A model generated the notes under the pieces. The model had not been told where the DNA came from. It did no database searches and saw nothing but the letters and a program-made list of their open reading frames with translations. From the NCBI GenBank assembly GCA_902500055.1, contig GCA_902500055.1_4131.1: a DNA stretch of 64,000 bases. One strand, 5' to 3'. Shown here piece after piece: positions 52,345 to 64,000 of the stretch. Numbering within the stretch: the stretch's first letter is position 1; every line of letters begins with the position of its first letter. This DNA comes from Escherichia coli. Its GTDB lineage: Bacteria > Pseudomonadota > Gammaproteobacteria > Enterobacterales > Enterobacteriaceae. The translations under genes were made by a program, and so were the position numbers.

Positions 52345-52373
52345 TTGACAGCATTATCAAGTACTGGCATAAT
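52345..52373 (+). promoter_or_regulatory. plus-strand sigma70-like promoter
   Basis: TTGACA-17 nt-CATAAT, followed by CCCACCGGGTGC box. Confidence 0.4.
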
Positions 52374-54870: not shown

Positions 54871-55925
54871 TCTGGAGGGCTAGACATATCTACGTCCAAA
54901 ATCCACCCAGGGTAACTACACCCAAAATCCGTCAGTACTATACCATAGATCTATCTTTTGAAAGGGAGTATTCAGTACTGCCATCATAGCCCTCACTATG
55001 TTACCCTAGGAGGATGAAGACCATCATGTAGTACTGAATACTGTTAGAGGGAATCCACCAGCTTGTGCTGGTGGCATAATGCATTAAATTAAAATCAGTA
55101 CTGACACCATTCTGTTAATATCAGTACTGTTTATATTACGAAAAAAGAGGTTATAAAAAGATGTACCACCCATAGGAGGAACTATCCTTTCAGTACTGTC
55201 TCACGACAGGAGGTAGAGTGAATGAATTGTTTGCGGCAACTCATCTCTCTATGTAGAACATTATACAGTACTGAATCATAATGTCAATAGCTTTCTTTCA
55301 TTATTCAGTACTGATATTCTTGAGAACTACCCGACTACAAACATCATTATATCCCACAAATCATAAACGTCCCAACGTAAATTTCAACTTTCGAAGATCC
55401 AACTTTTATTTCATAGGTACTCCAAAATTTTTAGGATCGAGATTTAGGATGGAGTACTAACCAACTTTTTGCTGGAGCCTCAAGGGGTAATGGAATTTTA
55501 CCCCGAAGGGTAAAAGGGTAATTGTAATTAAGGTGAAAGTAATAATTCAGTACTAATCATTGTGTGATTACTTTTGATTACATTTGATGTAATTTGCAAA
55601 ATGGAAAAGGAGCTTGGAAACTACAAAGTACGGCAGACTTCCTCTGCCTACTTAGTGGGATATCAGTACTGAATCATTCACACACATTTCCGTGCATTCT
55701 TGAGCAATCTTGTCTATACTAATCAGTACTGAATCATATATAATCATTCTGTGATTCTACGGTGCTCATATAAATGTTTATATATGATTACTTATGACTA
55801 CCTATGATTACGGGGTTTAGCCTGGGGAGAATCCTAGTGATCGCATTTGTCCAGGCTGAATTTTAACAATTCGCCTGTACATAAAGGTTGTTCACTAGGA
55901 GCTTCCCCTGTCTCTATGTGTTTAA

Positions 55926-56117
55926 TTACTTTCTATATATAAGCATTAAGATATAGTAGTACTGATTATACTGTACATTCTCTTTAATATTATAAGGGTC
56001 TATAGCAATCTCGGTACATCTGTTAAATGCATATCTATTAAATGCCAGTGGAATTATAGATCTAATCCATACTTGTTCATTTTCTTTTAGTTTACTTATA
56101 TAGAAGTTTTTATACAT
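55926..56117 (-). CDS. famC paralog (KEYY...LIFRY small protein)
   Basis: 63 aa; MYKNFYISKL...ILMLIYRK. Confidence 0.5.
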   Translation of the reverse strand: MYKNFYISKLKENEQVWIRSIIPLAFNRYAFNRCTEIAIDPYNIKENVQYNQYYYILMLIYRK

Positions 56118-56132
56118 AGTATTCTCTATTAA

Positions 56133-56315
56133 TTAATATGATAGTACTAGTGTTAGTACTGAGCACAATTGTTCTTTATAGTTCTTATGGTATATAGAAT
56201 CTTTTATGCACTCATTGAAGTGCCATAGGTATAATCTTGGGTCGCATTCTTTATATATTCTTACGGGGACGAATGTTAGTTTTCGTATATAGAATTCTTT
56301 ATGTTCTTTATTCAT
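56133..56315 (-). CDS. famC paralog
   Basis: 60 aa; MNKEHKEFYIRKL... Confidence 0.5.
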   Translation of the reverse strand: MNKEHKEFYIRKLTFVPVRIYKECDPRLYLWHFNECIKDSIYHKNYKEQLCSVLTLVLSY

Positions 56316-56316
56316 A

Positions 56317-56505
56317 TTAGTACCTGAATATAAGTAGGATTATGTTATAGTACTGGTTAGTACTGCAATGATTCTCTATACATCGATTAACAGTTATGGA
56401 ATAGCTATATCTGGCGTAAGCATTATCCAGCGGGATTTTACATTGAGCACTTAGAGAAAGTACAGTAGGTAGTGTATTCAAATAGAAGTCTTTGTAATTA
56501 TTCAT
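56317..56505 (-). CDS. famC paralog
   Basis: 62 aa; MNNYKDFYLNTL...IILLIFRY. Confidence 0.55.
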   Translation of the reverse strand: MNNYKDFYLNTLPTVLSLSAQCKIPLDNAYARYSYSITVNRCIENHCSTNQYYNIILLIFRY

Positions 56506-56707
56506 ACAGGAATAGTATACCTATGATACCTGAGTACAGGTTAGTACTGTTACCATCTTCGTTTGCGTTTAAAGTCATTTGAATACAATTATTGTAGCAT
56601 ACTCTGCCGAAAAATGTATTAGTACTTAAAGGTGGAGTAGTCCTTAGAAACATTTGTTCTGAGGGGCTGAGGTGTTTGGAGTAGTATTCTTTATGTTCTT
56701 TATTCAT
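56498..56707 (-). CDS. famC paralog
   Basis: 69 aa; MNKEHKEYYSKHL... Confidence 0.5.
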   Translation of the reverse strand: MNKEHKEYYSKHLSPSEQMFLRTTPPLSTNTFFGRVCYNNCIQMTLNANEDGNSTNLYSGIIGILFLYE

Positions 56708-56712
56708 ATTAG

Positions 56713-56898
56713 TTAGTGTCTGTATATAAGTAATAGTAAGAATACGTACTGCACTTGTTCATCTTTAGTATTGAGTACTGTACGTATTGCGTCATTAAAC
56801 AAGAATATAGTACTTGGGTCATGAGAATTTAAAGGGGTTCTGGGTACGGCATGTTTGTAGTTCCCTTTAACAAATTGTGTGTAGTATTCTCTATGCAT
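56713..56898 (-). CDS. famC paralog
   Basis: 61 aa; MHREYYTQFV...LLLLIYRH. Confidence 0.55.
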   Translation of the reverse strand: MHREYYTQFVKGNYKHAVPRTPLNSHDPSTIFLFNDAIRTVLNTKDEQVQYVFLLLLIYRH

Positions 56899-56899
56899 A

Positions 56900-57085
56900 T
56901 TAGTACCTATATATTAGGGCGATAATGTAGTACAATTCATATGGAATGTAATTTGGGGTGATCGCACACTGTGTATGGTAAATGAATTGTTCGGTATTTT
57001 TCTTATCCTTGATATCTATTGGGATTAGTGGTATAAGCATTTGGGAGTTTAGATCGAGATGGCTTAAGTAGAATTCTTTATGCAT
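56900..57085 (-). CDS. famC paralog
   Basis: 61 aa; MHKEFYLSHL...IIALIYRY. Confidence 0.55.
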   Translation of the reverse strand: MHKEFYLSHLDLNSQMLIPLIPIDIKDKKNTEQFIYHTQCAITPNYIPYELYYIIALIYRY

Positions 57086-57094
57086 ATTGTTCTT

Positions 57095-57283
57095 TTAGAA
57101 TACGAAAGCTAGGTACAGGGTATGATACAGTACTCGATGATAGCTATCAAAATCTAGTATACATGCTTTAGTGCACATAGTAAAGTACACTTTATCGTTT
57201 TGTGCAATGATACCGCGAGGTTTATCTAATAGATTAGTACTGAGGTACATTGGGAAATATTTTGTGTAGTATTCTTTATGCAT
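57095..57283 (-). CDS. famC paralog
   Basis: Track ORF trimmed to Met16 (MHKEYYTKYF...). Confidence 0.5.
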   Translation of the reverse strand: MHKEYYTKYFPMYLSTNLLDKPRGIIAQNDKVYFTMCTKACILDFDSYHRVLYHTLYLAFVF

Positions 57284-57284
57284 A

Positions 57285-57467
57285 TTAGTACCTGAATATA
57301 AGTAGGATAGTGTTATATAGCTGGTCATAACTACTACTATTTTCTATACTTCGTTCTATGCAGTTATTGAATCCCAGTACTGCCAAATCGTTATCCATAG
57401 GGACTTTGTATCTGGCGTAGTGTTCAAAAATGCTGGGGAGAAATTGTGTGTAGTATTCTTTGTGCAT
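57285..57467 (-). CDS. famC paralog
   Basis: 60 aa; MHKEYYTQFL...ILLIFRY. Confidence 0.55.
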   Translation of the reverse strand: MHKEYYTQFLPSIFEHYARYKVPMDNDLAVLGFNNCIERSIENSSSYDQLYNTILLIFRY

Positions 57468-57468
57468 A

Positions 57469-57660
57469 TTAGTACCTATATATTAGTAAAAGGATGTGAT
57501 ACAGTACTCGATTATAGTCTTCAATATATATCGAGGATTTAGTGCACTTAATGAAATAGTCTTTTTCGTAGTCTTTTTCTATACTCAATTGTTTTGTTGG
57601 TACAAGGTGTTGGAGATACATTGGGAGTTTCTCTATGTAGTATTCTTTGTGGTTATTCAT
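57469..57660 (-). CDS. famC paralog
   Basis: 63 aa; MNNHKEYYIEKL...ILLLIYRY. Confidence 0.55.
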   Translation of the reverse strand: MNNHKEYYIEKLPMYLQHLVPTKQLSIEKDYEKDYFIKCTKSSIYIEDYNRVLYHILLLIYRY

Positions 57661-57668
57661 ATTATGTG

Positions 57669-57848
57669 TTATTTCGTGAAAACAAGGGTTAGTACTGCAT
57701 AGTACAAGTCATACGTATCTTTAGGGTTAATAGCACCTTTAATACATTCTTTCATTACTTCATTATAGATAATTTTAGTACTGAATGTATTGGATGTTAC
57801 TATATCGGAATTAAGGTACGAGAGGTAGAATTCTTTATAAGTATTCAT
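57669..57848 (-). CDS. famC paralog (59 aa, below track cutoff)
   Basis: Hand-translated MNTYKEFYLSYL...AVLTLVFTK; coordinates approximate. Confidence 0.4.
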   Translation of the reverse strand: MNTYKEFYLSYLNSDIVTSNTFSTKIIYNEVMKECIKGAINPKDTYDLYYAVLTLVFTK

Positions 57849-57849
57849 A

Positions 57850-58032
57850 TTAGTACCTGAATGTTAGCATTACTACGTAGTACAGCATATATGGATTATC
57901 ATCGTATATGAGCGTGTACTTAGTACATTGTTGGAACATTATCTTTGCGTGATCTTTGATACCCAATGCAACGTTTGGTATATGGTGTTGTAGATGCATT
58001 GGGATTTTATCTTTGTAGTATTCTTTATACAT
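57850..58032 (-). CDS. famC paralog
   Basis: Track ORF trimmed to Met22 (MYKEYYKDKIP...VVMLTFRY). Confidence 0.5.
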   Translation of the reverse strand: MYKEYYKDKIPMHLQHHIPNVALGIKDHAKIMFQQCTKYTLIYDDNPYMLYYVVMLTFRY

Positions 58033-58684
58033 AGTTTGAAATATACGTAATGAGGTGATGAAATTTCTTATCAGTACTGATAAGTTCCTGTACATGTTTT
58101 GTTAGTTTGTACGCGTTTTTATAGAGTTCTGGATTATCGATTACAGTACTGTACATGAATTCTTCTTCTGGTGTTAATTCTTTGTTTTGTAGTTCTTTGA
58201 GGAATTGCAGTACTGTATCAGTTTCGTTAGTACGTTGCTTTTGGAAGAAGTGCATGTTATCGTGTATTTTTTCTGAACCCATGCAGTACATATCGCCGAT
58301 TTGGAATTGTGCAGTACTGATATCATGGGTGCTATTACAATTCCCGAAGAAGTATACATTCCCGAAAGATAGAATTATAGTGCACGGGATATTATCCATG
58401 TGTATATAGATAGATGCATTCTTTAGTGCTTTTGTGCTGGTATTAGTACTCAATACTTTTAAATCAGTATGATAGATATTAATAAAAGCAAGAGCTATAT
58501 TATTTTTCTTCAAGTACGATTTGAGGTTCTTAGATACGAGAACATTTCTGGATTTTTTCTTTTTATTTCGTTTCTTTAGTACATTAGGGTGATACGTATA
58601 TGCAGATGTAATAGATTCTGCTTGAATACTGTTGAGGTACTTAAAGTGCTTAAGGTATTGTTTGCTGTGTGCATTAAGTTTCAT
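58025..58684 (-). CDS. hypothetical protein with famA-like core, embedded in famC array
   Basis: 219 aa; EEEFMYSTVIDNPELY resembles the famA core. Confidence 0.5.
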   Translation of the reverse strand: MKLNAHSKQYLKHFKYLNSIQAESITSAYTYHPNVLKKRNKKKKSRNVLVSKNLKSYLKKNNIALAFINIYHTDLKVLSTNTSTKALKNASIYIHMDNIPCTIILSFGNVYFFGNCNSTHDISTAQFQIGDMYCMGSEKIHDNMHFFQKQRTNETDTVLQFLKELQNKELTPEEEFMYSTVIDNPELYKNAYKLTKHVQELISTDKKFHHLITYISNYV

Positions 58685-58694
58685 TTGGTTTCCT

Positions 58695-58874
58695 TTATAC
58701 AGATGCTAGTGCGAGGATTTCCCTGAAGGGATTATCTTTTGTTAGTGCGTGATGAATGCAGCTATTGAGATTAATATTTTTAGTACTGTTAGTTGCCAGG
58801 TTGTAGTACTTCACGAAGGTGTCGTACATGAAACGGTCTTTAATGCTTATGTGTTCTATATAGTATTCTTGCAT
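58695..58874 (-). CDS. famC paralog
   Basis: Track ORF trimmed to Met26 (MQEYYIEHIS...). Confidence 0.5.
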   Translation of the reverse strand: MQEYYIEHISIKDRFMYDTFVKYYNLATNSTKNINLNSCIHHALTKDNPFREILALASV

Positions 58875-58882
58875 ATTATTCC

Positions 58883-59062
58883 TTACATAGAGATGAGTTT
58901 CAGTACTTCTCTGTACGTGTACTTTTCGTTTTGTGCTTCTACTGTACATGATAGAAAGTATCGTTTTTTATCTCTTTTGTTCCCGACTGTGTAGTACCTT
59001 TGGAATTTATTATAGTTGTATCTATCTTTGTGCTGAAGTTTATAGATATAGAATTCTTGCAT
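58883..59062 (-). CDS. famC paralog (59 aa, below track cutoff)
   Basis: Hand-translated MQEFYIYKLQ...REVLKLISM; coordinates approximate. Confidence 0.4.
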   Translation of the reverse strand: MQEFYIYKLQHKDRYNYNKFQRYYTVGNKRDKKRYFLSCTVEAQNEKYTYREVLKLISM

Positions 59063-59070
59063 AGAGTACC

Positions 59071-59256
59071 TTAGATAGAGATTAGTTTCAGTACTTCAAT
59101 ATATGTGCGGTACTCTGCTTTAATTAAATTTGTACACACTGTAAGGGAATTTCTTTGTATAAGTTTATTGCCGCTTTTATACGCATTTCTCCACACATAG
59201 AGATGAGATCTTTCTGGCATAGATAGTTTATTTGTATAGTACTCAAATGTATTCAT
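59071..59256 (-). CDS. famC paralog
   Basis: Track ORF trimmed to Met8 (MNTFEYYTNKL...IEVLKLISI). Confidence 0.5.
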   Translation of the reverse strand: MNTFEYYTNKLSMPERSHLYVWRNAYKSGNKLIQRNSLTVCTNLIKAEYRTYIEVLKLISI

Positions 59257-59266
59257 AGTATTCTCT

Positions 59267-59452
59267 TTACATATCAATAAGTTTCAGTACTGCTCTGTAC
59301 GTGTACTTAGTTGTTAGTGTTTCTTTTATAGCAGTACTGAAGTAATGTTGTTTGTCCCTTATACTACCGCGTTTGTAGTACCATACATGGGAGTTGTGGG
59401 TGTACTTGTCCCTGTCGGATAGATTTTGGTAATAGTATAATATATGATTCAT
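59267..59452 (-). CDS. famC paralog
   Basis: 61 aa; MNHILYYYQNL...RAVLKLIDM. Confidence 0.5.
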   Translation of the reverse strand: MNHILYYYQNLSDRDKYTHNSHVWYYKRGSIRDKQHYFSTAIKETLTTKYTYRAVLKLIDM

Positions 59453-60296: not shown

Positions 60297-60398
60297 GTGT
60301 AGTTCTCCTTGTATTCCTTCTATAGTACACCAGTACTGAAAGGATGTCAAGGGTTTTGTTTATGGGGTAAATATGATATAATGAATAAAGGAGGAAAT

Positions 60399-61304
60399 AT
60401 GTTACCTTTTGTTAGAATGTTTGATTATGGGAATGAAGCTCCATTACCAGCCCCAAATGGTGGTATACGAACTCAATTTACCACATCACCAGTACCTTCA
60501 GCACGAAATAACTTTGGTTATACGTATGATGCATCAAGAAATACTGCTTATATATTTGGTGGTATAATGAATACTTCGAACCAGGATAATCAGTTATGGA
60601 GTTTTAATTTAAATTCTAGAATATGGGTACAATTATCATCACCACCAGTATCCACCTATGGAAGTGCATTGTGTGCCTATCAAGGAAAAATATATTTGTT
60701 CGGTGGTTTAGGTGCAGCGAATGTTGCTAATAATAATTTTTATGTATATGACATAAGCTCTGATACATGGACACTGAATAATACAAGTGTTGGCAAACCT
60801 AACCAGGCAGTATATAGTAAGATGATTACTACAGGGGATAAGATATATTTGTGGGGTTCACCGTCTAATACTGCATTATATAGTTATACGCCGAGTACTA
60901 ATACATGGGCATCGTTAGGTACTACTGGGAATACAACAAACAATGGTGGTGGTGATATGTGCACTGATGGTACTTACATATATTTTACAGGACAAGGATC
61001 TACTCCTGCACAAAAATATCACATAGAGAGTGCGGTTTGGTCAAGAATGGCAGCAGTTGGTGGAGCTAACCCTAGTAAGATAATTTACAATAGATATGAC
61101 AAAGGTATATATGCAGTATCTTATGGTGCATTAAATTTATTAAAATATGATGCCGAGCAAAACAAATGGATACCATTAGCTATCAATACAACGTTGAGTA
61201 ATAGTACTGGTGCATTATTTGGCTCTAATAATAGTGCTGAAATATTTTACGTACTTGGTTACGACAACGGGACACGTGTTAATACGCAGTATGTTTTTAA
61301 ATAA
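60399..61304 (+). CDS. famD: Kelch-like beta-propeller protein with conserved MLPFVRMFDYGNEAP N-terminus
   Basis: Start set at ATG after AAAGGAGG; Kelch-like periodicity AYIFGG...LWSF, KIYLFGGLG...DTWT, KIYLWG...NTWA. Confidence 0.6.
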   Translation: MLPFVRMFDYGNEAPLPAPNGGIRTQFTTSPVPSARNNFGYTYDASRNTAYIFGGIMNTSNQDNQLWSFNLNSRIWVQLSSPPVSTYGSALCAYQGKIYLFGGLGAANVANNNFYVYDISSDTWTLNNTSVGKPNQAVYSKMITTGDKIYLWGSPSNTALYSYTPSTNTWASLGTTGNTTNNGGGDMCTDGTYIYFTGQGSTPAQKYHIESAVWSRMAAVGGANPSKIIYNRYDKGIYAVSYGALNLLKYDAEQNKWIPLAINTTLSNSTGALFGSNNSAEIFYVLGYDNGTRVNTQYVFK

Positions 61305-61316
61305 TTTGGAGGAAAT

Positions 61317-62466
61317 ATGTTACCTTTTGTAAGAATGTTTGATTATGGGAATGAAGCACCTACCAACTCTGGGCGTTTTAAAATATATTCCAGTGATTCT
61401 ATGTATCTTCATGATACTTATACTGATAAGTTGTATGCATCTTCTGCGACGAATTGGGGTACTGGTACAGGTGTAGCATCGAGTAAATTTATTCTTTGTG
61501 CGGAGAATGTTAAACGAGTTCTATTGGAAGATAACAGTAGTGATTGTCAATTGTATGAAGAGAAAGGTACTGGAAAAGTTTTTATCACTGGTAACACGAA
61601 GGCATTCACTGGTGTAACTGATAGAAAAACTTTGTGGACGGACTGTACTACGTGGATAACATCAAGTGGTATTAATGTTTCTGATATAAAATACATGAGT
61701 AGTTTTTATGATATGAAGGTGAATTTGATAACAAACGATGGTACATTGTATTGTTGTGGAACTAACAATATATCGAACATATCATCATTTGGTGATGGCA
61801 CAAACATTAATTCTTTTAACACATTCAAAAGAGTAGATACTATAACTTCGGTTAAAAAGGCAGTTGGTAACATTTATTTGCGAGAAGATAATACTTTATG
61901 GGGTTGTGGTTTTAACTATTACTACCAGTTGGGTACTGGTAATCAAACTTCGATTACTGGGGTGACGATGATTTCTTCGGATGTTATAGATTTTGATGTA
62001 AGTTATCAGAGTACATTTTTTTATCAAATCGGATAATAATTTGTACGCATGTGGGAAGCAGTACGGAGCACAATATGGTAATGAATTTGGCACAGGTGGA
62101 ACATCTACTAGTACTGATATTCAATACAAGACTCCTACATTATTGAGTACAGGGGTATATGGTGTATATGCATGTGTTGCTAACATGGCATCACATATTG
62201 TCAAAGCAGATGAAGTTCTATATGCTTCTGGATCGAATGGGTTTGGGCAATTAGGTGTTGGTAATAATAATAATCAGTACTCCTATACTCCTTCATATAC
62301 TTCGTTTAATACTTCGTGTAATTTGGTACGCACTCCATCTGGTTCACTTATACTTACTGACACTTCGAAGTTATATTATTCGGGTGCTTCATTTGTAGTA
62401 ATGGGTGGTAGTGCTGGACAGAACGTTCTTAATTATACCGAAGTCGATATGTCATTTGTGCAGTAA
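61317..62466 (+). pseudogene. famD: RCC1-like repeat protein split by a frameshift in a T7 run
   Basis: ORFs 61317..62036 and 62041..62466 both carry RCC1-like repeats (LYCCGTNN, LWGCGFNYYYQLGTGN; LYACGKQYG, LYASGSNGFGQLGVGN); a 1-nt shift in TTTTTTT at 62016-62022 joins them. Confidence 0.5.
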
Positions 62467-62475
62467 ATTAATATA

Positions 62476-62500
62476 CCAGTACTTGATACTGGCTTTTTTT
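62476..62500 (+). terminator. intrinsic terminator
   Basis: Hairpin CCAGTA-CTTGA-TACTGG followed by TTTTTTT. Confidence 0.6.
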
Positions 62501-62534
62501 GATTAAATATAGTATAATGAATAAAGGAGGAAAT

Positions 62535-63644
62535 ATGTTACCTTTTGTAAGAATGGTTAAGTACGGGAATATTGCACCAGTACCGAAAAAAATAAAGAAA
62601 GTTATAGCAGGATATGATAATTTATATGTACTATATGGTGATGGTTCGCTATATGGTTGTGGAATCAATAACTATCAACAGTTAAATATTGATGGAACTG
62701 CTACACAAAATAATTGGGTACTAATTACCAATGGTGTTAGTAATGCATGGGCTGGTGGATACAATATTTTATATTTGAAAGAAGATAAATTTATAATGCA
62801 CGGAACTAATGTCTCATTAGGTTTAGGAAATACTACAATTCCATTAGGTGGAGTAGATGTAACTTCTTCATTCCCAGATATCTCTAATATTAAAATGATA
62901 TCCATTGGTTTTGATTCAATGCACTATGTTAGTGCTGATGGTACAACTGTATATGGAAGAGGTATGAACACAAATGGTTCTGTTGGTTCAGGTAGTACTT
63001 ACTCACAGAGTACTTTCACTTCAGTACTGAATAATGGAACTAATCAGGTTATTGATATATTTGGTAACGTTAATAATACAGTGCTTCTAACATCGAATGG
63101 TGAGCTTCGAGCATGTGGGACAAGTGCTTATGGTTCTATAGGAAATGAAACTGGTAAGTGGACATCGTTTGGTTTAAAATTATCTGGCACTAAAATAATG
63201 GGTGGTAATGGGTATAGTACGCTTGCATATACAAATTCGGGAATGTACCACTCAGGGTGGCAGTTAAATGGGGAACTAGGAAATGGTTTAGATACTAACG
63301 TACAGGTATATCCATTTCAATTTAACTCTAAAACGATAGATAGCAAGATAGATAAAATTGCCAAATCATCATCTGGGTCATATGTTAACATGTACTCAAC
63401 AACAGAAGGAAAGATATATACGACAGGTTCGTTTGGTAAAAACGGGTCAACTACTGCATTGAATTTGTTCACCAATACATTAACACTTATAAATTACAAT
63501 CCAGATACCGCCTCGTTGTATACGTGCACAAACTTCAGTGTTGTGTATGATGGTAATGAAACTATTGCTGTAAGTGGTAGTCCTACATATGTACCAGGGG
63601 GCGTTGCCGCTAATAGATGGACTACAATTCCATTACCCAAGTAA
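62535..63644 (+). CDS. famD: RCC1-like repeat beta-propeller protein with MLPFVRMVKYGN N-terminus
   Basis: Start at ATG after AAAGGAGG; repeats LYGCGINNYQQLNIDG, VYGRGMNTNGSVGSG, LRACGTSAYGSIGNE, MYHSGWQLNGELGNG. Confidence 0.6.
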   Translation: MLPFVRMVKYGNIAPVPKKIKKVIAGYDNLYVLYGDGSLYGCGINNYQQLNIDGTATQNNWVLITNGVSNAWAGGYNILYLKEDKFIMHGTNVSLGLGNTTIPLGGVDVTSSFPDISNIKMISIGFDSMHYVSADGTTVYGRGMNTNGSVGSGSTYSQSTFTSVLNNGTNQVIDIFGNVNNTVLLTSNGELRACGTSAYGSIGNETGKWTSFGLKLSGTKIMGGNGYSTLAYTNSGMYHSGWQLNGELGNGLDTNVQVYPFQFNSKTIDSKIDKIAKSSSGSYVNMYSTTEGKIYTTGSFGKNGSTTALNLFTNTLTLINYNPDTASLYTCTNFSVVYDGNETIAVSGSPTYVPGGVAANRWTTIPLPK

Positions 63645-63651
63645 TACTATG

Positions 63652-63676
63652 CCAGTACTTGATACTGGCTTTTTTT
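63652..63676 (+). terminator. intrinsic terminator
   Basis: Same hairpin CCAGTACTTGATACTGG plus T-run as at 62476. Confidence 0.6.
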
Positions 63677-63711
63677 GATTAAATATAGTATAATGAATAA
63701 AGGAGGGAATT

Positions 63712-64000
63712 ATGTTACCTTTTGTTAGAATGTTTGATTATGGGAATATAATCGAAGTTAATAATATAAAGAAAAGTGTTGTTAGTTACACTCTTGAAAT
63801 GTTTCTAATGCAAGATGGCACTGTATATGCACACGGTGAAGATTCAAACTATAATGCGGGTTTAAGTACAAAGTTTGTATCGTTAGGAGCAGTTCAACAA
63901 ATCACAACTGAAGTTGATGACTTATGGTTAGGATCGTTTTCCGTTGTTATTAAAGGTGATAAAATATATGGTTCAGGTTCAACATATGCATTCACGAATT
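63712..64000 (+). CDS. famD: RCC1-like repeat protein, 3' end beyond window
   Basis: Starts MLPFVRMFDYGNIIEV after the conserved cassette (here AAGGAGGG); VYAHGEDSNYNAGL, IYGSGS; open to window end. Confidence 0.5.
   Translation, partial: MLPFVRMFDYGNIIEVNNIKKSVVSYTLEMFLMQDGTVYAHGEDSNYNAGLSTKFVSLGAVQQITTEVDDLWLGSFSVVIKGDKIYGSGSTYAFTN

Follow-up and report, generated by a model that had tools for sequence, protein, structure and literature searches.

The internal proteins IPI, IPII and IPIII of bacteriophage T4, together with their hypervariable relatives, carry an N-terminal capsid targeting sequence (CTS) that the prohead protease cleaves off at L/I-x-E (PMC3012670), and in the RBP2-type secondary receptor-binding protein of phage KP32, a conserved N-terminal peptide was necessary and transferable for virion incorporation (PMC13352976). 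Here we describe a 12-residue N-terminal peptide, hereafter the tag, encoded at the start of four plus-strand genes near the end of a 64,000-nucleotide stretch of DNA (the window; contig GCA_902500055.1_4131.1 of the Escherichia coli assembly GCA_902500055.1). An earlier note, made from these letters alone, had suggested that a constant N-terminal module on variable propeller bodies was a shared anchoring or targeting peptide. Our analysis supported that suggestion, as the peptide was kept across genera, occurred on unrelated folds, was predicted to lie outside the propeller, and predicted which proteins were members of the virion. We consider it probable, though well short of certain, that the peptide stays on the mature protein and serves to dock exchangeable binding modules on the virion.

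Similar to the CTS, the tag is a short, constant N-terminal peptide on unrelated, fast-evolving proteins carried by the virion, and its locus varies between close relatives (PMC3012670). However, the CTS is cleaved off and its cargo is small, basic and internal, whereas the tag was retained in phage CBB and its cargo is neutral and 25-45 kDa in size; the two sequences are dissimilar. The short conserved N-terminal peptide on diverse virion proteins that characterizes a T4-type system was thus present here, whereas cleavage at a conserved L/I-x-E was not seen, as there was no conserved Glu and peptides spanning the junction were recovered from mature CBB virions. The CTS is the closest evolutionary analogue of the tag.

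The KP32 peptide resembles the tag in being a retained N-terminal peptide, in that the very first residues matter, and in serving as a portable plug for a variable module (PMC13352976). It differs in that KP32 has one trimeric beta-helical depolymerase per phage, mounted through a 29-residue peptide on a known socket, in systems of this type a T4gp10-like branching domain of a primary receptor-binding protein, whereas the tag is 12 residues long, unrelated in sequence, and carried in jumbo myoviruses by 10-15 predicted monomeric modules of several folds. The cargo was made up of propellers, ConA/LamG-like domains and glycine-rich domains rather than the trimeric beta-helical depolymerase or tailspike of a KP32-type system, while retention of the peptide and its association with incorporation into the virion were both observed. 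The KP32-type peptide is the closest experimentally proven counterpart, and it is this mechanism that we propose for the tag.

Encapsulin cargo-loading peptides, which are usually C-terminal and bind the interior of a shell with the HK97 fold, are likewise short, terminal, unstructured alone, and able to load diverse cargo by docking; their usual C-terminal position, their shell-interior binding and their unrelated sequence set them apart from the tag, for which nothing in our results points to the capsid protein as the socket. Conserved N-terminal assembly elements on several variable virion proteins have also been described within the same broad clade, in the D1/XD domains of CBA120 TSP1-4 and RaK2 gp526-534, but these are folded domains of ca. 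100 or more residues on trimeric tailspikes (PMC10253068).

The window was found to come from an Asteriusvirus, a 121Q/phAPEC6-like jumbo coliphage of a ca. 350 kb family of giant bacterial viruses, and shared ca. 96% DNA identity and the same gene order with vB_Ec-M-J, Ecwhy_1, fEgEco12, 121Q and phAPEC6. It carries the tandem RCC1-like array published for this genomic position in 121Q-like genomes, and multi-copy RCC1-like genes are already in print for Asteriusvirus (PMC7247149, PMC5259590). In phAPEC6, eleven RCC1-like genes were counted and six products were found in virions by mass spectrometry; the authors speculated on a role in DNA condensation or in the inner body of the phAPEC6 virion (PMC7247149). 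The CBB paper noted RCC1-like copies in 121Q and PBECO4 and reported GAP32 gp1 as a virion protein (PMC5259590). The published arrays (121Q, PBECO4, phAPEC6, GAP32 gp1) comprise the same genes as those described here, and earlier work already covered the array and the presence of several of its products in virions; both papers treat the genes as RCC1 homologues, without mention of the tag, of non-RCC1 carriers or of a link to incorporation (PMC7247149, PMC5259590). A literature check found no mention of the N-terminal tag in the phAPEC6, CBB, fEgEco12 and RaK2 papers, nor in the Alcyoneusvirus adsorption paper, the jumbo-phage survey of Iyer et al. or a 2026 jumbo-phage review, and NCBIfam held no curated family for the tagged proteins. 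The array is therefore known, while neither the tag nor its tie to virion incorporation seems to have been described before in the literature that could be searched.

The names under which these proteins are filed in databases (“DNA condensation protein”, “HERC1”, “RPGR regulator”, “S-layer protein”, “Ig domain-containing protein”) are transfers from unrelated proteins and are functionally uninformative. Names of this kind imply chromatin, DNA-condensation or Ran-GEF activity, but the misleading “DNA condensation” label was carried over from eukaryotic RCC1; neither Ran nor nucleosomes exist in the host, and the proteins are neutral with little Lys and Arg. Tagged proteins had a median isoelectric point of 7.0, a net charge of 0, a Lys plus Arg content of 5-7% and a Gly, Ser, Thr and Asn content of ca. 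40%, a composition that does not support a DNA-condensing role.

The four genes of the window, starting at 60399, 61317, 62535 and 63712, were confirmed to have in common a repeat at their 5′ ends and the peptide MLPFVRM(F/V)(D/K)YGN. The earlier note had counted 15 conserved residues, but strict conservation extended over only 12. Across genera the tag followed the consensus M-[L/I]-P-F-x-[R/Q/K]-[M/I/L]-h-x-Y-G-N, always at residue 1, and M1, P3, F4, Y10, G11 and N12 were invariant in 100 distinct tags, a set chosen for YGN. In the 96% identical relative vB_Ec-M-J, where the array runs on to 15 genes and the cassettes could be counted beyond 64 kb, all 15 begin MLPF[V/A]R[M/L][F/V][D/K]YGN, including three closely spaced genes that lack the hairpin and TATAAT-type promoter/terminator unit; about one gene in five is tagged without that unit. 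Annotation of this array calls the single Kelch gene a “virion structural protein” and the other 14 genes “regulator of chromosome condensation”. Whole proteins of these paralogues were only 16-32% identical, whereas their first 12 residues averaged 87% pairwise identity and the next 12-column block 28%. Arrays in other genera behaved in the same way: 14/14 genes were tagged in the Salmonella phage Munch (MIPFxRIhxYGN) and 10/10 in the Erwinia phage Hallingskeid, with close variants of the Munch form (two ending YGQ/YGR, one FGN), while all seven in the Xanthomonas phage XbC2 start with MLPFP, five of them with the full YGN.

Codon usage separated selection on the peptide from conservation of the DNA. 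For tag and body separately, we determined how often identical residues were encoded by the same codon. In Munch, Hallingskeid and XbC2, codon identity was 0.59-0.66 in the tag versus 0.45-0.49 in the body, while in Asteriusvirus it was 0.83-0.90 versus 0.46. Because the codons varied in the other genera while the peptide was kept, selection must have acted on the peptide itself; in Asteriusvirus, the codon pattern indicated homogenization at the DNA level in addition to this peptide-level selection.

A second tag subtype, MLPF(P/S)II(S/N), often without YGN (e.g., MLPFPIISNTNI and MLPFPIISKTTI; L005 919 and 4365, L009, P0021, P0022), occurred alongside the YGN type in phages of Xanthomonas, Serratia and Yersinia, and may reflect two sockets or a degenerate tag.

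The bodies that follow the tag were diverse. With the first 14 residues (the tag plus two) removed, 127 tagged open reading frames (ORFs) fell into nine body clusters, and profile searches distinguished at least five body types: RCC1, Kelch, Laminin_G_3/ConA-like lectin, Gly_rich_2, and PHROG 6011 (“virion structural protein”). The PHROG 6011 body also occurred untagged in Cronobacter phage CR3, and the tag was absent from cellular Kelch and RCC1 homologues and from RCC1-like proteins of unrelated phages. Among PHROGs, LamG bodies matched parts of virion structural proteins of very large size, as well as parts of a baseplate wedge subunit.

Within the window, Pfam profile searches bore out the reading of one Kelch and three RCC1-like bodies. 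Gene 1 matched the Kelch family PF24681 (2.9e-26), with Kelch_1, 3, 4 and 6 also above their cut-offs. Gene 3 scored 36.6 bits against PF13540 (cut-off 22), the first half of gene 2 passed both PF00415 and PF13540 and both its halves matched RCC1 Pfam models, and the full-length orthologue of gene 4 passed PF13540; against the whole-domain RCC1 model PF25390, the window proteins stayed below the cut-off of 150. AlphaFold2 (AF2) models of gene 1 (predicted local distance difference test, pLDDT, 83; predicted template modeling score, pTM, 0.84) and gene 3 (pLDDT 86, pTM 0.88) were confident for the propellers, while residues 1-17 of gene 1 and 1-12 of gene 3 were modeled as coil with pLDDT below 50. 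Foldseek aligned gene 1 with the Kelch domains of KLHDC2, KLHL and NS1-BP (TM score 0.63-0.76) and gene 3 with UVR8, RPGR, HERC2 and RCC1 (E 1e-21 to 1e-14, TM score 0.66-0.79), the model of gene 3 being superposable on solved RCC1-like domains as a seven-bladed fold. In these models, the tag is predicted to lie outside the folded propeller and to be unstructured there.

The tag was restricted to a narrow group of viruses. A degenerate pattern of tag DNA was scanned over 2.9 million IMG/VR contigs, a true tag being one with a Shine-Dalgarno sequence, an ORF start and a long ORF, and true tags occurred only on contigs of 349-378 kb and on one contig of 109 kb. A looser DNA pattern added Yersinia phage fHe-Yen9-04, another contig of 358 kb, and ca. 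15 single matches; these single matches were rejected as chance, as they had neither a Shine-Dalgarno sequence nor an ORF start and lay in short or internal ORFs. A profile built from the N-termini of the four genes matched 39 of 1.84 billion representative proteins at E <= 0.001, with the tag at residue 1 or just past a mis-called start in 36, and the other three matching the RCC1 repeat only. When a 40-residue N-terminal profile of 94 tagged proteins was searched against a collection of 5.8 billion proteins, none of the 21 candidates scored. Tagged proteins were present in GAP32. The last 45.8 kb of RaK2, the stretch that was covered and which includes its tail-fiber locus, held no MLPF...YGN tag. 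Because of this restricted occurrence, the tag represents a lineage-specific invention of the RaK2-like jumbo-phage clade.

The earlier note had pointed to virion proteomics as a way to see whether these proteins are packaged, and in published proteomes nine of 11 tagged proteins were detected in CBB virions and six of 12 in phAPEC6 virions. The six phAPEC6 proteins (gp003, 005, 006, 007, 009 and 010), which are among the 62 proteins identified in its virions by mass spectrometry (PMC7247149 Table 1), are all tagged; their molecular weights match our translations to the second decimal, and all begin MLPF[G/A]RM[I/V/L]KYGN. The tagged genes found in CBB are CBB_144, 247, 536, 537 and 548-554, and CBB_144, 247, 536, 537, 548, 549, 551, 552 and 553 were detected in its 55-protein virion proteome (PMC5259590 Table 4). 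Enrichment of tagged proteins in the virion had a hypergeometric P of 2.4e-8 in CBB and 8.6e-4 in phAPEC6. Two of the CBB genes lie far from the main array, CBB_144 (L031 3121-3885) as a solitary gene between nrdD and nrdG, and CBB_247 (L028 3166-3900) as a solitary gene beside endonuclease VII. As both products were nevertheless present in virions, a tagged gene reaches the virion wherever it is located in the genome.

The published CBB peptides also indicated the fate of the tag. Peptide LFEYANVIIPPNYK corresponds to residues 7-20 of CBB_536 and peptide YANVIVEYATK to residues 10-20 of CBB_548, each crossing the junction between tag and linker, and virion peptides of CBB_144 and CBB_553 start just past the tag. 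The junction-spanning peptides show that the tag-linker junction is intact in mature particles and that the tag is not cleaved off.

The suggestion that conserved 5′ DNA would allow cassettes to be exchanged gained support from whole-gene insertions and deletions among relatives and from a crossover in Ecwhy_1. Three phages that are ca. 96-97% identical differed at the head of the array by whole-gene insertions and deletions: the window reads Kelch, gene 2 (g2), g3, g4; vB_Ec-M-J reads Kelch, g2, an orthologue of g4, J4, J5 and onward; and Ecwhy_1 reads g2, g3, a J5-like gene, and then a gene without a close counterpart. vB_Ec-M-J lacked the gene 3 cassette, which Ecwhy_1 and fEgEco12 carried in 100% identical form. 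In Ecwhy_1 gene 516, the upstream DNA and codon 5 (GTT) of gene 1 are joined to the body of gene 2, which places a crossover between codon 5 and codon 14, in the tag-coding DNA common to genes 1 and 2. Orthologous bodies also carried different tag alleles (IK in P0003, FD in P0005), and the variable tag positions were homogenized within each genome. This homogenization fits gene conversion, or co-evolution with a genome-specific partner.

The four genes of the window form the start of an array of ca. 15 tandem genes. Each product consists of the 12-residue tag, a short and often proline-rich linker, and an autonomous beta-rich binding module, which is a Kelch or RCC1-like propeller in the window and can also be a ConA/LamG lectin-like, glycine-rich or other small domain in related genera. 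As a retained docking tag, the peptide, unstructured alone, would bind one common socket on a virion component and stay on the mature protein, so that many interchangeable modules could be mounted on the particle through it. We would place the modules on the outside of the particle, for example on hair-like fibers of the capsid and tail sheath, where they may act as accessory adhesins. An external location is favored because the cargo, which is neutral, contains little Lys and Arg and its folds are lectin-like or peptide-binding, and also because LamG bodies resemble segments of fiber and baseplate proteins and the phages carry unexplained hair-like fibers. The array evolves by duplication and divergence of bodies and by homologous recombination between the 5′ units, which comprise the terminator hairpin, a TATAAT-type leader, the Shine-Dalgarno sequence and the tag-coding DNA. 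Such recombination adds, deletes and re-heads cassettes and makes the tag uniform within a genome.

A T4-type system is a serious rival: a tag acting as a capsid-targeting sequence would bring cargo into the prohead core, where it would be packaged with the DNA, possibly in the inner body, and ejected as anti-defense or take-over effectors. Short constant N-terminal peptide, hypervariable cargo, hyperplastic locus and virion association are all shared with T4, and phAPEC6 has an inner body for which its authors proposed the RCC1-like proteins. However, no conserved Glu follows the tag, the residue at position 13 varying among I, T, V, E and K, CBB virion peptides cross the junction between tag and linker, the cargo comprises neutral, Lys/Arg-poor propellers and lectin-like domains of 25-45 kDa rather than small basic proteins, and sequence coverages of 3-17% in phAPEC6 fit poorly with a bulk component of the inner body. 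We regard ejected internal cargo as rather unlikely, though it deserves to be taken seriously. It is equally necessary to ask whether the peptide has a dedicated function at all, as the array might simply consist of tandem duplicates whose N-termini are homogenized by gene conversion of repeated 5′ ends. Synonymous codons of the Asteriusvirus tag are 83-90% identical versus 46% in the body, a crossover lies inside the tag-coding repeat, variable tag positions are homogenized per genome, and the window holds several other families of tandem paralogues, all of which speak for this view. Gene conversion would leave unexplained the invariance of M1, P3, F4, Y10, G11 and N12 across genera whose codons differ, the presence of the same tag on unrelated folds and on the solitary CBB_144 and 247, and the enrichment in virions, and we judge it improbable.

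The same codon evidence bears on the idea that the conserved element acts as nucleic acid, for example as a translation-initiation region to which a translational repressor or small RNA binds or as a signal for recombination, with the peptide as a by-product. Conservation in Asteriusvirus runs unbroken from the leader to codon 12, synonymous sites included (such as the rare GGG for Gly11), and the leader is specific to the array within the window; but other genera keep the peptide with varying codons and without conservation of the upstream DNA, and three vB_Ec-M-J genes are tagged without the leader, which makes this explanation very improbable. Propellers of the RCC1 and Kelch families often have their ring closed by a terminal strand, and the tag, being hydrophobic and strand-like, could in principle be such a “velcro” strand conserved for folding. 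The AF2 models, in which residues 1-12 and 1-17 are unstructured and outside two confident propellers, argue against this, as do the occurrence of the same tag on bodies other than propellers (LamG, glycine-rich and PHROG 6011) and its absence from cellular Kelch and RCC1 homologues and from RCC1-like proteins of unrelated phages. We rejected the velcro strand on the models and the non-propeller cargo; it is largely refuted and hardly credible as an explanation.

Several observations weigh against a retained docking tag as well. Two of the 11 CBB proteins and six of the 12 phAPEC6 proteins with a tag were undetected in virions, which may mean that the tag is not sufficient or that these proteins are of low abundance, and the phAPEC6 members that were detected had low mass-spectrometry coverage (one to four peptides, 3-17%). 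The inventories behind the enrichment values are lower bounds, as the CBB and phAPEC6 genomes were scanned in part. The short tryptic peptide MLPFxR was not observed in the CBB peptide list, and the low pLDDT of the tag came from a shallow alignment and is no proof of disorder. Finally, we infer the docking step itself from correlation.

A more specific form of the docking tag, in which it would serve as a universal plug that fits one socket on the hair-like fibers of capsid and tail sheath, is tentative, and we think it somewhat more apt to be wrong than right. The CBB authors expected whisker proteins among the structural genes missing from GAP32 and stated that hair-like structures are not described for GAP32 (PMC5259590). 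All six CBB structural proteins that they listed as absent from GAP32 are tagged, CBB_144 and CBB_247 among them. However, GAP32 is tagged despite having no described hair-like structures, which weakens the fiber idea and counts against the docking tag in this form. Should the plug exist, the virion would wear a coat of 10-15 different, fast-exchangeable lectin-like or peptide-binding heads, a second modular host-adhesion layer separate from the tail fibers of the baseplate, and heads could be inserted anywhere in the genome (cf. CBB_144 and 247) yet still be mounted.

A docking tag would have several uses. It would give hundreds of jumbo-phage genes a testable function in place of misleading labels (“DNA condensation protein”, “HERC1”, “RPGR regulator”), would account for heterogeneous small “structural proteins” in two virion proteomes, and would allow virion components to be predicted by a sequence rule in a clade in which ca. 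80% of genes are unknown. The make-up and role of the hair-like appendages of 121Q, phAPEC6 and CBB would become testable, as all six CBB-specific structural proteins are tagged. A 12-residue retained tag that accepts unrelated folds could be leveraged as a compact display or loading handle for very large phage particles, and the array offers a clean case of repeat-mediated cassette turnover with a mapped crossover.

ATGTTACCTTTTGT occurred exactly four times in the window, always on the plus strand, at 60399, 61317, 62535 and 63712, and a 90-nt direct-repeat family spans the same four sites. A 28-nt leader, TTAAATATAGTATAATGAATAAAGGAGG, was exact at 62503 and 63679, had three mismatches at 60367, and occurred nowhere else in the 64 kb, while shuffled sequence gave 0 matches. 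A hairpin, CCAGTACTTGATACTGG, was present at 62476 and 63652 versus 0.01 expected, both copies being terminator-like by score, and AAGGAGG, a Shine-Dalgarno sequence, lies 5-6 nt upstream of the MLPF ATG. The claim that each gene has the same 5′ cassette held for genes 1, 3 and 4; gene 2 has only the Shine-Dalgarno sequence and the tag. The same terminator hairpin was indeed found before two genes, with its copies at 62476 before gene 3 and at 63652 before gene 4. The leader may function as a promoter. A sigma-70 scan gave fewer matches than shuffles and no -35 element. The leader was rejected as a general phage promoter across the window, as it was present at the array only.

Starting the genes upstream, at an MNKGGN extension that the earlier note had held open, was not borne out and was rejected: MLPF is the true start because the extension contains the Shine-Dalgarno sequence, is interrupted by a stop codon ahead of gene 2, and is in a different reading frame from gene 4. 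Upstream TTG/ATG starts were called mechanically at 60309 and 62499 of the window and occur in databases for P0019, P0101 and P0113. Such mis-called starts (e.g., MNKGGN-MLPF...) hide the position of the tag at residue 1.

The leader of gene 1, which represents the head version of the array's 5′ cassette, spans 60367-60398 on the plus strand, as do all features described in this paragraph on their respective coordinates, and consists of a TATAAT-like box GATATAAT, the Shine-Dalgarno sequence AAAGGAGG and a 4-nt spacer. Gene 1 (60399-61304, 301 residues) encodes the tag MLPFVRMFDYGN (60399-60434), a Pro-rich linker and a six-bladed Kelch propeller, and its product is 100% identical to that of the vB_Ec-M-J gene annotated “virion structural protein”. 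Gene 2, which is RCC1-like (61317-62466, tag 61317-61352), follows after a 12-nt gap, with no hairpin or TATAAT part, and is split into 61317-62036 and 62041-62466. The split reflects a +1 frameshift at a T7 homopolymer (62016-62022), which is T6 in alignments with vB_Ec-M-J and Ecwhy_1, where the orthologues are intact at 382 residues; either the sequence is in error here or the gene has only recently become a pseudogene. After gene 2 come the terminator-like hairpin with its T-run (62476-62499) and the 5′ cassette of gene 3 (62503-62534), an exact TTAAATATAGTATAATGAATAAAGGAGG with spacer. Gene 3 (62535-63644, 369 residues) encodes the tag MLPFVRMVKYGN (62535-62570), the linker IAPVPKK and a seven-bladed RCC1-like propeller, and is followed by the second terminator-like hairpin and T-run (63652-63675). 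The 5′ cassette of gene 4 (63679-63711) has a spacer longer by 1 nt, which puts the upstream ATG out of frame. Gene 4 (63712-64000), cut by the end of the window, encodes the tag MLPFVRMFDYGN (63712-63747) and the start of an RCC1-like propeller, and its orthologue in vB_Ec-M-J is EcMJ_583.

Tandem gene families were also found elsewhere in the window. Directly upstream of the array, on the minus strand at 55926-58095 and 58695-59452, lie packed families of ORFs of 59-84 residues that start M(H/N)KE(Y/F)Y and end LLIYRY, with 10 and 4 members by BLAST clustering. Further paralogue families lie on the minus strand at 6475-34958, with 28 members of 52-90 residues (14857-34958), 13 of 103-192 residues and 10 of 146-186 residues. 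With several such families, much of the window consists of expanded gene families.

The palindrome AGTACT was the most over-represented hexamer in the window, with 272 occurrences versus 21.5 expected (z = 54), and CAGTACTG occurred in 65 copies versus 0.6 expected. No literature on AGTACT over-representation was found. An excess of 7- to 19-fold was seen in every RaK2-like genus sampled, including RaK2 (L001, L003-L007, L009, L027, L029, L030, L049). Most AGTACT sites were not paired into hairpins and many lay within coding sequence. They were unevenly spread, with 1-3 in each 4 kb between 20 and 28 kb and 24-33 in each 4 kb between 36 and 60 kb. Arms of CAGTACTG also formed hairpins on the minus strand, with a 14-bp stem at 55096-55129 and a copy of the array hairpin with two mismatches at 52351-52367, so that this type of hairpin is not unique to the array. 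Directly downstream of the tagged array, a run of opposite-strand genes of ca. 100-125 residues was present in Asteriusvirus (L001 38616-41055), the Erwinia phage (L004 12094-16617) and CBB (L027 11036-13952); these genes are syntenic, and in CBB they are annotated as putative membrane proteins.

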